Shown: positions 4,110-9,956 of the stretch, piece after piece
Layout of the letters: each line of letters opens with the position of its first letter
How positions within the stretch are numbered: position 1 is the stretch's first letter
Assembly: GCA_965220845.1 (NCBI GenBank)
Contig: CBDCRA010000005.1
Coordinates: 896,016-960,015 of the forward strand
DNA: 64,000 bases
Direction: 5' to 3'
Source: Candidatus Multivorans sp.
GTDB lineage: Bacteria; Acidobacteriota; Thermoanaerobaculia; Multivoradales; Multivoraceae
Program-made: the position numbers and the translations under genes
The notes under the pieces: model-generated
The model's database searches: none
The model's input: the letters and a program-made list of their open reading frames with translations, nothing else
Told to the model about the DNA's origin: nothing

Positions 4110-4808
4110 TCAGCGTAGGGACGCCGTCACCACCGCGAAGACCAGGCCCGCCAGACCCATCTCCAGCACCTTCCCTGCCGCCCAGTGGATCGCGGCAATG
4201 GCGAACCCGGCTGGTCGGGACACCCGGAACACCGAGGCGGCGCCCAGGCCGAGCAGGAGCAAGGACCAGACGAAGACGAGGGAGCCGATCAGCAGGTCGA
4301 GAATCGCGCCGGGCGCCATTTCGGCTACCTGCCCGATCACGTCGAGGCCGGAGTCCGGTCTCCTGTCGAGGACGCTCCGCTGCATCTCGACGAGGCCGTC
4401 GACCTGGGTGGTTCTCAGCAGCGAGCGGACGACCAGCCCCACGGCGCCGATGAGTCCTACATGGAGGGCCAGCGACAGGCACTGTTCGAACCGCGCCCGA
4501 CCCTTGAGGGCCGCGGCCAGGAGCCGGAGCACTGCCGCCTCGACCAGGAGCGCGAGCGGGATGGCTGCGATGACGAACGACAGCATCCCATAGGGAATCT
4601 CGAGGGGATCACCGATGCTGTCCATCGCATCGGCCAACAGCGACGTCGTCAACAGTACGGCCAGGACTGTCAGGGAGATGCCCAGAGTCAGGCCGGCAAC
4701 CCACGGGTGGTGCTCGCGGATGACGGCGAAGCTCTTCCGCGGAGCGGTGAAGATCCAGATCAGGGCCTTGAACCAGAGGTGGCGGCTCGCCTCCGGTTCT
4801 TCGCCCAT
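4110..4808 (-). CDS. Yip1-like (Yip1/DUF1282 family) polytopic membrane protein
   Basis: 232-aa ORF with 5-6 predicted TM helices. Hydrophobic profile and motifs resemble the Yip1 domain. Last gene of the putative peptide-export operon. Confidence 0.5.
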   Translation of the reverse strand: MGEEPEASRHLWFKALIWIFTAPRKSFAVIREHHPWVAGLTLGISLTVLAVLLTTSLLADAMDSIGDPLEIPYGMLSFVIAAIPLALLVEAAVLRLLAAALKGRARFEQCLSLALHVGLIGAVGLVVRSLLRTTQVDGLVEMQRSVLDRRPDSGLDVIGQVAEMAPGAILDLLIGSLVFVWSLLLLGLGAASVFRVSRPAGFAIAAIHWAAGKVLEMGLAGLVFAVVTASLR

Positions 4809-4853
4809 GAGGGGACTGTATCGACTCGTGATCGAACCGGAGACTCGGCCCGG

Positions 4854-5633
4854 TCAGCTCGGTGTGAGCCGGGCGAAGAGACCGGCCGCCACGGCGGTGA
4901 AGGCCGTCGTCGCTGCCCAGTAGATGGCGGCCAGCAGCCATGCCTTGCGCTGCGGAACCTCGAACACCGCGGCGGCGCCCAGCGCGAGCAGCGCGAGAAA
5001 CCAGATCGTGAACGGGTTGATGCTCGCGTAGACGGCATTGAGCGTCGCGTTGTCGCCGGCCAGCAGCAGGTCGAGTCCCATCGGCGCCCGGAGGTCCAGT
5101 TGCGATCGGATCGCGTCGGTGCCGCGGAGGTGAACGAGAAGGAAGTTGGCCCAGCTCTGAAGATGAGTGATTACGGCCAGGTGGATCATGAGGGCGAGGG
5201 ACTGGACGAATCGGGGACGTCCCTGGAGGGCGATCGCCAGGAGCCACACGAGGACGGTCTGAATCGCGAGTCCGACGGCCACGGAGAGGGGACCGGTGGC
5301 CATCGCCAGCCAACGCCCTGCCGCGGCTGCCTGTTCGAACTGCGCCATCATGGCGTCGACCTGTTCGGGGCTGCCCGGCATCCGTTCCGTCAGTTGGGCC
5401 CGCATGGCCTGGAGGCCCAGCGGCGCCGAGGCAAACGCCAGGGCGGCGTTCCCGGCCAGGACCAGGAGCAGCGTTGCGAGCCATGGGTTGCGGTTCCGGA
5501 TGATCTCGAAGCTCTGCCGCGGCGACCCGAAGAGCCCGAGCAGCGCCGTGAGCCAGGCGCTCCGGCCCCGCGAGCGTCCGCCTCCGGTCCCGGCGTTGCG
5601 TTCGTGGTTGGTGCTGCCTGGATGCTCGGTCAT
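4854..5633 (-). CDS. Yip1-like polytopic membrane protein (second copy)
   Basis: Start ATG 5633 (MTEHPGS...) with AGGAG 6 nt upstream. The start overlaps the stop of the upstream ABC ATPase gene (ATGA coupling). The long N-terminal extension in the track ORF is R-rich and probably not translated. Confidence 0.55.
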   Translation of the reverse strand: MTEHPGSTNHERNAGTGGGRSRGRSAWLTALLGLFGSPRQSFEIIRNRNPWLATLLLVLAGNAALAFASAPLGLQAMRAQLTERMPGSPEQVDAMMAQFEQAAAAGRWLAMATGPLSVAVGLAIQTVLVWLLAIALQGRPRFVQSLALMIHLAVITHLQSWANFLLVHLRGTDAIRSQLDLRAPMGLDLLLAGDNATLNAVYASINPFTIWFLALLALGAAAVFEVPQRKAWLLAAIYWAATTAFTAVAAGLFARLTPS

Positions 5634-8060: not shown

Positions 8061-8228
8061 GGAGTCCTTGGGGTCACTGTCCGGCTCTCGCGATGGGGAA
8101 GGCCGACACCAGGACTGGCGGCGGACCGCGCTGGCCGCCTTGCAGAGGAGCGACGAGACCCCCCACCGCTTCGCCTGACGAAGGGAGCGACCCTAGGCCC
8201 AGGGGCACTGGCCAAGCGTGGCAGGGGG

Positions 8229-8303
8229 TCCGGCTCGCAGGCCCACTGCGCCTCTGACAACCAACGGTCGGACGCTAGCGCGCCGGGATGGCGTCCGTCA
8301 AAC
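8229..8303 (-). repeat. conserved ~75-nt intergenic element, copy 2
   Basis: See 3987..4059. Overlaps the stop codon of permease paralog A and sits in the 237-nt gap before permease paralog B. Confidence 0.5.
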
Positions 8304-9956
8304 ATCTCTGCACGGCGTGTCTACGGAAGCAGCGCGAGGAGCTGCACTCGTGTCTGAGTCGTCTCGACCCATGAGGGCGTCGAGTCCGCGGGAGTCGATC
8401 AGGCGTCGGGTCGATGCCCGGAAAGCCAGCCCCGCCCCGACGGCCAAGGCAGTGTGGACCGCGGCGACGATGCTCAACGCCAACGGGCTCGGAGTGCCTT
8501 CAAAGAACGTGAAGAGAAAGAGCGTGGAGAAGAAGGGAAGGAACAGGACGAGGCCGAGCAGGTTCCGTGTCAACACCTTCCCCGCACGAACGTCTGGCCC
8601 CACTGTTCCAGCGGGTGTCTGCCAGCGCGCGTCGAACCATCCGTAGGCCGCTGCGGCATAGAAGATGGCCGATGAGCAATGAAGGACGAGATAGCCGACG
8701 TGGAGCCAGCCAAACCAGCCGAACTGCACGAGACACACGGCGAACGTTGCTCCAGAGAGGCAGATCGCGACCAGAGACGGTGCCCGAGCCATCGCGCGGA
8801 GGACACGAGTCGGAGCAACGGGCAGTGCGAAAGACTCGGACCAGAGACGACCCGTAGGCAAGGTCGCTTCGCCGCGGTGTCCGGTGAGGTTCATGCATGC
8901 GAAGGTGAGTGAACCGACGACGGCTATGACCGGATCGTCTACGGCGAGAACGAGAAAGCCGAAGAGCGCGAGCGCGATGAGCATCGACCATCGGATACCG
9001 CGGTTCCTGGCTCCGCTCTCAATCTCGATCAGGGTCAGGACGCTGCCCGGCGACACCGCGGGTAGACGACGCAGCAAGGCCGAGAGCGGCAAAGTCGGGT
9101 GCTTGACCTGTGGGGCGCCCAAGGGCGAACCGAACTGCAACCTGCGTAGCAACTTCCGGTCGCAAGTGCCTGTGGCGACAGCGTAGAAGCAGAGGCCCAG
9201 AAGGCGAGCTCCGTTTCGCCATGTGCCCTCCGGATCGTCAAGCATGGCGGCGAGGAGTCCGGCGGGAGTGAAGGCAGCGATTCGAATCACTACCGAATCG
9301 CTCATCCACCTCAGCAAGTCGTCGGCGTTCGATTCGCCCGCCTTCAACAGAACTCCCCAGTAGAGTCCGAAGTAGACCGCGCTGATGGCGACGAGAACGA
9401 TGGCCGAACCGATCAGCCCCTCGACCAGCCGGTCGCGCTGGTTCGTCACGATGGAGACGATCTGGCCCTGGGTCACGACAGCCAGGGCCATGGCCGCGGT
9501 GAGCATCGCCAAGCCGAGAAGGCTGCTCGACCGCGCGACGGCGAGGTAGGGTGCGGCCAAGCCAAGAGCCAGAAGCCAGGCTCCGCCAAGATAGCCGGCC
9601 AACCGTAACTGATAGAGGGTGTTGAACCCGAACGGCAGCGGGTTGAGTTCTCTGATGTTCAGCAGCCAGGTGATGGACCGTTGGGTGAGCAGTTGCGTGA
9701 AGAGCCAGCCGATGGCGACGATTGAAACGGCAGCGGTCAGCAGGCCTCGTCGCAGCGATGCGTCCTCCAGGTCGAGTATCAACCGTGGCACGAAGATGGC
9801 CAGGAAGAGCGCGATGACGACGTTCGGGATCGCGAGGAGGGTCAGGAGAACGGCCGAGCGATTCACCCGCAGGGCCTTCATCCAGACTGTCAGGTAAGCA
9901 TGGCACAGCGCACCGATTCTGCGGACCAGGAGCAGCCTGCTTCCCGTCGTTGTCAT
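8298..9956 (-). CDS. large polytopic membrane protein, putative ABC-2-type permease (paralog A)
   Basis: 552 aa. RBS GGGAGAAG upstream of ATG 9956. Paralogous to 6471..8060. Confidence 0.7.
   Translation of the reverse strand: MTTTGSRLLLVRRIGALCHAYLTVWMKALRVNRSAVLLTLLAIPNVVIALFLAIFVPRLILDLEDASLRRGLLTAAVSIVAIGWLFTQLLTQRSITWLLNIRELNPLPFGFNTLYQLRLAGYLGGAWLLALGLAAPYLAVARSSSLLGLAMLTAAMALAVVTQGQIVSIVTNQRDRLVEGLIGSAIVLVAISAVYFGLYWGVLLKAGESNADDLLRWMSDSVVIRIAAFTPAGLLAAMLDDPEGTWRNGARLLGLCFYAVATGTCDRKLLRRLQFGSPLGAPQVKHPTLPLSALLRRLPAVSPGSVLTLIEIESGARNRGIRWSMLIALALFGFLVLAVDDPVIAVVGSLTFACMNLTGHRGEATLPTGRLWSESFALPVAPTRVLRAMARAPSLVAICLSGATFAVCLVQFGWFGWLHVGYLVLHCSSAIFYAAAAYGWFDARWQTPAGTVGPDVRAGKVLTRNLLGLVLFLPFFSTLFLFTFFEGTPSPLALSIVAAVHTALAVGAGLAFRASTRRLIDSRGLDALMGRDDSDTSAAPRAASVDTPCRDV

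Follow-up and report, generated by a model that had tools for sequence, protein, structure and literature searches.

Organization of the locus

The window analysed here is a 64,000-nucleotide stretch of Candidatus Multivorans sp., a member of a marine Acidobacteria lineage (contig CBDCRA010000005.1, positions 896,016 to 960,015), with a G+C content of ~68%. Its minus strand carries an ATP-binding cassette (ABC) transporter module consisting of two large membrane proteins (permease 1 and permease 2), one ABC ATPase and two Yip1-like membrane proteins (Yip1a and Yip1b). Upstream of these lie genes for a membrane-anchored thioredoxin-like protein (the redoxin), a stand-alone C39 peptidase and four small peptides, and downstream a gene for a 371-aa secreted protein (Table 1). 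Each permease is predicted to contain two fused transmembrane domains, and the gene neighbourhood, which is conserved in related genomes, suggests that the module handles secreted, toxin-like peptides.

A first-pass annotation of the sequence had described the five transporter genes as two giant paralogous permeases followed by a single nucleotide-binding domain (NBD) gene and two Yip1-like proteins, all translationally coupled or closely spaced. All five genes exist, on the minus strand. The permeases (552 and 529 aa) are indeed paralogous, with 29% identity over 475 aa (BLASTP, E 4e-44), and the NBD gene (ABC_tran, E 1.6e-30) is followed by two proteins that both pass the Pfam gathering score for Yip1. 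The close spacing holds in part: the Yip1a start codon overlaps the ATPase stop codon by 4 nt (ATGA), the permease 2-ATPase and Yip1a-Yip1b gaps are 52 nt and 45 nt, and pepC and permease 1 lie 82 nt apart, but the two permease genes are parted by 237 nt of conserved non-coding sequence. The ATPase open reading frame (ORF) extends over 6502-5630, and the ATG at 6418 is the likely start because the resulting product of 262 aa matches every orthologue in length. The gap that separates pepC from permease 1 contains, at 9984-10021 (minus strand), a perfect inverted repeat of 11 bp, GGCTTCCTGGG ... CCCAGGAAGCC, with 16 nt in its loop and no T-tract; it may be an attenuator or an RNA-stability hairpin.

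A genome-collection scan, with a tblastn survey of the components, identifies 31 loci of this kind. All are from Acidobacteriota, namely the class Thermoanaerobaculia, Candidatus Multivorans or metagenome-assembled genomes labelled "Holophagales" or Acidobacteria, and all share a fixed frame of redoxin, C39 peptidase, peptide genes, one to three permeases, ATPase, one to three Yip1 proteins and the 371-aa secreted protein. The tie between the transporter module and the C39 and peptide genes that the first-pass annotation had drawn is supported by the same gene order in 31 Thermoanaerobaculia genomes.

Table 1. Features of the transporter locus and its surroundings in the window.
Feature	Position	Strand	Size	Basis	Description
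Permease 1	9956-8298	-	552 aa	ORF and translation	Accessory permease (clade 1), predicted fused double-domain
Conserved non-coding element, copy 1	8297-8061	-	237 nt		Directly upstream of core permease
Permease 2	8060-6471	-	529 aa		Core permease (clade 3), predicted fused double-domain
ABC ATPase	6418-5630	-	262 aa		DrrA/ABCA-like
Yip1a	5633-4854	-	259 aa		Yip1/YknW-like membrane protein
Yip1b	4808-4110	-	232 aa		Second, dispensable Yip1 paralogue
Conserved non-coding element, copy 2	4054-3867	-			Between Yip1b and the gene for the 371-aa secreted protein
Thioredoxin-like protein (redoxin)	12331-11828	-		PF08534 Redoxin, E 4e-6	Membrane-anchored, CGNC motif
C39 peptidase	11838-11236	-	200 aa	PF03412, E 1e-30	Stand-alone, N-terminal membrane anchor
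Peptide gene block	11220-10039	-		Translations	Four genes
Pro-rich peptide	11220-10993	-		Translation	Secreted
pepA	10982-10806	-		Translation	
pepB	10749-10414	-		Translation	
pepC	10335-10039	-		Translation	
371-aa secreted protein	3813-2698	-	371 aa	Signal peptide	Downstream of transporter module

A rare permease family with a predicted double-domain architecture

Neither window permease matches any Pfam or NCBIfam model, and a profile search of the PDB sequences returns only spurious matches to viral fusion proteins. Word-based searches of 5.8 billion proteins recover 15 relatives for permease 1 and, for permease 2, 60 that are all from Acidobacteriota; every one of these proteins is unnamed or designated "hypothetical". 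An exhaustive profile search gives 55 family matches among 1.84 billion cluster representatives, and a third round of searching, based on a profile built from the distant members, adds only five further proteins. The family is rare and unannotated, and is found mainly in Thermoanaerobaculia. Sub-threshold matches to ABC2_membrane_5 (PF13346) are present in the C-terminal half of 3 of 75 family members (E 2e-4 to 4e-3), and one distant member carries the JGI label ABC-2 permease. In the searches of Pfam, NCBIfam and the PDB no homology of the permeases to a characterised non-peptide transporter family was found, and the first-pass proposal of a peptide exporter or immunity pump stands on this point.

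An AlphaFold2 (AF2) model of permease 2 from a 75-sequence alignment (pLDDT 85, pTM 0.77) is all-helical, and supersedes a poor model of permease 1 from a shallow alignment (pLDDT 62.7). It predicts 12 long helices arranged as 6+6, in the order N-terminal amphipathic helix (residues 10-27), six transmembrane (TM) helices, basic linker (275-300), second amphipathic helix (301-315), six further TM helices and a basic C-terminal helix. Counts of Lys and Arg across the alignment predict that the N-terminus, the linker and the C-terminal helix all lie inside. The best-conserved segments of the family are two predicted cytoplasmic loops, 89-119 and 359-376, which follow the second helix of each half and contain the motifs WLLDLE..L.LPV (95-107) and VWRESL.LP (366-374; permease 2 numbering); these loops are putative coupling elements for the ATPase. 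Also conserved are E309, R315 and R320, in the helix preceding TM7, and a YTPPGL motif within short external helices ahead of TM6; such helices (209-238) are found in the first half only.

In Foldseek-type fold searches type V TMDs recur among the better matches, all of them weak: CcmB (probability 0.98, target-normalised TM-score (TMt) 0.52), Wzm (TMt 0.48), KpsM, ABCA7 and Rv1217c (E 0.8). An internal duplication is not detected by hhalign, in which the alignment of the N-terminal with the C-terminal half is non-significant (E 0.39 and 0.19); this alignment is collinear and superposes the two conserved loops. The size of the permeases, reported at first as far above that of typical ABC-2 permeases, is indeed large, but it appears atypical because two transmembrane domains (TMDs) are fused in each chain. 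This type-V-like architecture is well supported by the predicted structure, whereas its homology to type V transporters is unproven.

The ATPase and the Yip1 proteins

The best NCBIfam match of the ATPase is TIGR01188 DrrA (E 3.5e-63), and its nearest solved relatives are the NBDs of ABCA3, ABCA4, ABCA1 and ABCA7, NosF and Rv1218c. Its motifs are intact, with Walker A GPNGAGKT, Walker B ILFLDE, H-loop TSH and a non-canonical signature YSHGM; the Q-loop position reads VPD. The protein is 88-99% identical across the loci. Matches to NF047565 PmtA (E 4e-31) and galliderm_ABC (E 5e-41) are both below the model cutoffs, and a score of 140.8 bits against the LanF-type model TIGR03740 (cutoff 309.75) does not reach equivalog level. 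A PADLOC scan returns only generic ATPase similarity, with no hint of a defence system.

Yip1a and Yip1b are 32% identical (E 1e-15) and score 42.4 and 56 bits against Yip1 (PF04893; gathering cutoff 28.6), with E values of 9e-11 and 6e-15 respectively. Against NF052650 YknW_fam they score 69.3 and 36.7 bits (Yip1a E 3e-19), below the equivalog cutoff of 110. Yip1b contains five hydrophobic segments and is present or absent on near-identical backbones, missing in locus L010 and present in L011.

Peptides, C39 peptidase and redoxin

Each locus has several peptide genes between the C39 gene and the first permease. The pepA product lacks a signal peptide and carries only a canonical double-glycine leader (MNTASTMIAILPEADLAAVTGG); pepA is limited to one subclade of the loci. 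The products of pepB, pepC and the pepD/pepE pair begin instead with a Sec-type signal and a spacer, followed by a canonical leader whose last two residues are GG, GA or GS (LAMNELAQLTGG, LTLAEMSALTGS and LSISDQAAAGIHGA are examples); the pepB and pepC leaders follow the patterns LxxxELxxLTGG/GA/GS and LSDxxxxxIxGA. The Pro-rich peptide likewise starts with a Sec-type signal before a GG/GA/GS leader. The cores of pepB to pepE are Gly-rich and hydrophobic, with Cys residues near both ends. The pepD/pepE pair is widespread, occurring in most other loci, and is absent from the window.

In 33 C39 sequences with a hydrophobic anchor segment, the net charge of the flanks is +2 to +5 on the N-terminal side and +1 on the C-terminal side (+2 in one locus); the C39 protein of L034 lacks the segment. 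The redoxin has an N-terminal RRR followed by a TM segment, carries a CGNC motif and accompanies C39 in a conserved pairing that extends to the distant locus L037. By the positive-inside rule the charge on the N-terminal side predicts that the catalytic domains of both proteins face the periplasm, which suggests that leader cleavage and disulfide formation would take place outside the cytoplasm. FapD provides a precedent for a periplasmic, active C39 peptidase (PMC5557850).

Distribution of the permeases and exchange of cassettes

The permeases form three clades: clade 1 (the permease 1 type), clade 2, the most frequent of the three, with no member in the window, and clade 3 (the permease 2 type). 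No locus lacks a core permease of clade 2 or clade 3 directly before the ATPase; clade 1 is an add-on, and the copy numbers of permease and Yip1 genes are not one-to-one. All permease family members examined adjoin a DrrA/ABCA-like ATPase, and since the distant relatives L036, L038 and L039 have one ATPase gene and one permease gene (535-574 aa) each, one permease per ATPase gene appears to be the basic unit. The view of the permeases as a fixed pair, at most implicit in the first-pass annotation, does not survive this comparison: most related loci have one, and some have two or three. Because copy number varies and the core permease always precedes the ATPase, permeases 1 and 2 are probably alternative partners of one ATPase and not a heteromeric pair.

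Permease 1 is found in four independent genomes (the window, L001, L003 and L029) and nowhere else among the related genomes. It co-occurs with pepB/pepC in 4/4 of these, all of which lack pepD/pepE and retain a core permease. Mean pairwise identities across 22 loci are 0.93 for the ATPase and 0.82 for C39, and 0.64 for Yip1a, 0.57 for the permease body and 0.55 for the mature peptides. Loci L010, L011, L012 and L015 are 94-98% identical at the nucleotide level to the window flanks (16000-10767 and 6511-1). Between these flanks their alignment with the window is limited to the 237-nt element and to the start of the core permease (~400 nt), at ~80%, and they carry pepD/pepE together with a clade 2 permease 43-45% identical to permease 2; the window instead has pepB, pepC, permease 1 and a clade 3 permease. 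Near-identical flanks that enclose a differing block indicate that peptides and permease body have probably been swapped as blocks on a constant backbone by recombination.

Locus L037 lies on a distant contig of lower G+C content, with a permease of ~19% identity. It has two Cys-containing, Gly-rich peptides with Sec signals and GG leaders, a redoxin, an anchored C39 peptidase, a 529-aa permease and a DrrA-like ATPase, the peptide, redoxin and C39 genes lying within 1576-3499. Since L037 keeps this set, the association of peptides and transporter extends beyond the Thermoanaerobaculia loci.

Several loci show further rearrangements. A further permease homologue, of 33-36% identity, is present ~10 kb downstream on the opposite strand in L008 (19409-21544), L009 (20226-21575), L019 (20180-21577), L020 (17597-18958) and L034 (~21001-21582), with no ATPase gene for it within the sequence of these loci; the copy in L008 appears to be split into two ORFs, and the window has no such copy. 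In L031 a transposase-like ORF (~430-460 aa) occurs twice within the variable region (2885-4270 and 7270-8553), with a truncated permease fragment (6823-7194) between the two. In L036 (5907-9608) the gene order is TolC-like outer-membrane efflux protein (OEP), ATPase, permease, which hints that some family members may work with an outer-membrane channel.

A conserved non-coding element

The sequence between the two permease genes belongs to an element of ~190-237 nt that is present in two sense-strand copies, at the same two positions, in every complete related locus: copy 1 upstream of the core permease and copy 2 upstream of the gene for the 371-aa secreted protein. Copy 1 has 76-99% nucleotide identity in all related loci, above that of the adjacent proteins, and copy 2 is ~70% identical to it over ~170 nt (nhmmer, E 4e-54). 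No further copies are detected with nhmmer elsewhere in the 64-kb window or in the distant loci, and Rfam has no match in the locus at E <= 1. An 85-aa ORF over the 237-nt gap was rejected as a gene: its substitutions have no codon periodicity, and its translation resembles GC-rich DNA read out of frame.

The consensus fold of copy 1 is -82.7 kcal/mol in the sense and -63.0 kcal/mol in the antisense direction (column-shuffle z = -4.1), and a second consensus fold gives -35.7 and -26.0 respectively (z = -5.8). Taking the two copies together, pairing holds in 96% of cells, compared with 37-56% in slid controls, although the sequences scored are also those from which the structure was derived. 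Many of the changes keep G-U pairing, and in one hairpin of copy 2 a CG<->AU switch is compensatory with respect to copy 1. The element is a candidate cis-regulatory leader RNA, and it may also anchor recombination, parting the peptide genes from the core transporter unit.

The 371-aa secreted protein that follows copy 2 is 84-98% identical across loci and has no match in Pfam, NCBIfam or the PDB. A paralogue with 46% identity is encoded at 35993-36970 (minus strand) of the window, and there is partial similarity at 1788-2099 (plus strand).

Proposed function

We propose, with a probability of about one half, that the module is a type-V-like pump that extracts the locus's own hydrophobic, Cys-containing peptides, once matured, from the inner membrane, providing immunity and possibly release. 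Type V and ABC-2 pumps typically take hydrophobic cargo from the membrane. Each ~530-aa permease would hold two six-helix TMDs and pair with a homodimer of the shared ATPase, so that permeases 1 and 2 would make two alternative pumps with one ATPase. Contact with the ATPase would be through the cytoplasmic loops TM2-TM3 and TM8-TM9 and the helix ahead of TM7, and one or two of the Yip1/YknW-like proteins would act as accessory subunits. Most of the peptides would be exported by Sec, cut at the double-glycine site by the anchored periplasmic C39 and oxidised by the thioredoxin-like protein; the pump would then take the mature peptides off the periplasmic side of the inner membrane and expel them, protecting the cell and possibly releasing them. 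Permease 1 would be dedicated to pepB/pepC, with permease 2 as a general core unit that is possibly kept in this strain as an orphan protector, no cognate peptide pair for it being present in the window.

A broader reading, which we hold only tentatively, joins these parts into a hitherto undescribed periplasmic route to class-II-like peptide toxins in diderm bacteria. Precursors with both a Sec signal and a double-glycine leader would cross the inner membrane by Sec and be matured there by C39 and the thioredoxin-like protein; the new fused permeases would pull them from the membrane of the producer and would plug interchangeably into a shared ATPase-Yip1 engine, with strains swapping "peptide plus permease" cassettes on a constant backbone; and the core pump would be controlled by a structured leader RNA of a new kind, of which there are two copies.

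Several observations weigh against the proposed peptide pump. With phylogeny accounted for, the core permease and pepD/pepE do not diverge in step (partial Mantel test, r = 0.12, p = 0.16). The 31 related genomes all come from a single lineage whose flanks are conserved, and vertical inheritance could explain much of the synteny. Distant family members lack C39 and peptides. The conserved element lies between the core permease and the peptide genes, which suggests that they belong to separate transcription units, and copy 2 stands ahead of the gene for an unrelated secreted protein. For the permease family no ABC-2 model of Pfam scores above threshold, and the type V fold matches are non-significant, none having E < 0.1. 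The pepA peptide, having no Sec signal, would need another membrane route, and because no outer-membrane or adaptor component is encoded here, release of peptides from a diderm cell is left unexplained.

The core permease was also considered as a specificity determinant and rejected, there being no significant covariation with pepD/pepE and all three pepD/pepE types occurring with clade 2. It is for permease 1 alone that the pattern of co-occurrence supports a pairing related to specificity or immunity; the core permease is probably a general component.

The alternative that survives best, although we regard it as unlikely, is a split exporter resembling the peptidase-containing ABC transporters (PCATs), in which permease and ATPase would move leader-bearing precursors out of the cytoplasm and the separate C39 would trim the leader, with immunity a by-product or absent. 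Type V pumps such as Pmt do export amphipathic peptides. The constant co-location of C39 and transporter fits such an exporter, as do the canonical double-glycine leader of pepA, free of a Sec signal, and the match of the ATPase to PmtA. Set against this, most of the peptides, and all of them where pepA is missing, start with Sec-type signals, the transporter is in every locus while pepA is in one subclade only, the anchor charges of C39 predict a periplasmic catalytic domain, and neither ATPase nor permease is of the type IV PCAT kind. Most substrates appear to be Sec-translocated and matured outside the cytoplasm, and a classical exporter that depends on leaders in the cytoplasm is unlikely given the Sec-type signals and a C39 predicted to be periplasmic.

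Still less likely, in our estimation, is a housekeeping lipid, drug or envelope pump that happens to lie beside a peptide locus, with a permease diversity unrelated to the peptides. It would account for the distant homologues that have the ATPase alone or a TolC-like OEP gene and neither C39 nor peptides, for the missing covariation between core permease and peptides, and for a core unit with its own conserved upstream element, shared with the gene for the 371-aa protein; the closest architectural analogue, Rv1217c-Rv1218c, also handles a drug or lipid (PMC11406275). It is harder to reconcile with the independent, distant lineage of L037, in which peptides, redoxin, C39, permease and ATPase remain adjacent, with the inheritance of permease 1 as a block with pepB and pepC, and with Yip1 partners that point to peptide-handling ABC systems (PMC4887032, PMC10598978, PMC10707071). 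That the two permeases are obligate partners in a hetero-oligomeric, 24-helix transporter with a single ATPase, as their adjacency and paralogy might suggest, is very improbable given the single permease copy in most related loci and three in one, the one permease per ATPase in the distant relatives, the two conserved putative coupling loops already present in each chain, and the separation of the window permeases, which belong to different exchangeable blocks, by a conserved 237-nt element.

Comparison with known systems

The closest architectural parallel to the proposed pump is the Mycobacterium tuberculosis type V exporter Rv1217c-Rv1218c (PDB 8k1m-8k1p), with both TMDs in one polypeptide and an NBD homodimer, a connecting helix before TM1 and TM7, coupling helices at TM2-3 and TM8-9, an EH-turn-EH before the last TM helix of each domain and a non-canonical signature motif YSKGN; this pump is linked to rifampicin resistance and not to peptides (PMC11406275). 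Both systems combine a permease of ~510-550 aa, predicted here to be fused, with a separate ATPase, proposed here to form a homodimer. The AF2 model suggests a similar layout, with amphipathic helices (10-27 and 301-315) and conserved cytoplasmic loops (89-119 and 359-376) as candidate connecting and coupling elements, and with short external helices in the first half only; the ATPases are related (E 5.5e-35), and the signature motif is non-canonical in each (YSHGM here). They differ in that the permeases have no detectable sequence similarity (the Foldseek match at E 0.8 is weak, with a TM-score of ~0.2 for the poorer model), in the reversed gene order, and in the several interchangeable permease paralogues, Yip1 partners and C39/redoxin/peptide neighbourhood of the loci described here.

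SDP is a Sec-exported peptide that contains a disulfide. ABC transporters that export membrane-active peptides, or that give protection from them, repeatedly have a Yip1/YknW partner, as in YknWXYZ, which acts against SDP (PMC4887032), and further Yip1-type ABC partners are known from As-48EFGH and Mr10EFGH (PMC10598978), from BawG of bawcin (PMC10707071) and from circular bacteriocins (bioRxiv 10.1101/2025.10.31.685828). YknWXYZ, As-48EFGH and Mr10EFGH resemble the window locus in having a Yip1-family protein with an ABC transporter beside genes for secreted, membrane-active peptides, and give producer protection and sometimes export. These systems use a MacB/FtsX-type permease and a membrane-fusion protein, whereas here there is a DrrA/ABCA-like ATPase with a fused, type-V-like permease, and neither a MacB/FtsX-type permease nor an HlyD-like adaptor is found among the window genes or the called genes of the related loci.

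LanFEG and PmtABCD, whose genes lie with those of their peptides, are ABC-2/type V pumps that clear the producer's membrane of amphipathic or hydrophobic peptides. Their permeases are separate proteins of ~250 aa with no Yip1 partner, periplasmic C39 or redoxin, and they come from Firmicutes, whereas the window locus is from a diderm acidobacterium. Like the PCATs, the locus brings together an ABC transporter, a C39 peptidase and peptides with double-glycine leaders, but here C39 is a stand-alone, anchored protein of 200 aa, predicted to be periplasmic like FapD (PMC5557850), the transporter is not a type IV fused TMD-NBD protein, and most substrates also carry Sec signals.

By analogy, the system resembles Rv1217c-Rv1218c in architecture and LanFEG, Pmt and YknWXYZ in logic. 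It lies outside the ABC-2 families at their thresholds, the YknW equivalogs and the PCATs, and is without a MacB-type permease or adaptor. The combination of a rare, unannotated family of fused permeases with Yip1 proteins, a predicted periplasmic C39 and redoxin, and Sec-plus-GG peptides appears to be new.

If the proposed function is correct, an unannotated ABC permease family would acquire a plausible role, and the Yip1-ABC pairing known from bacteriocin handling in Firmicutes would extend to another class of transporter in Acidobacteriota. The design would be modular, with exchangeable membrane subunits on one shared ATPase. Taken with the Sec-plus-double-glycine precursors and the predicted periplasmic C39, it would point to a way in which diderm cells might process hydrophobic peptide toxins, and withstand them, with no need for a classical PCAT. 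For genome annotation, the permeases are a warning that "hypothetical" membrane proteins of ~530 aa beside DrrA-like ATPases can be fused ABC-2-type permeases.

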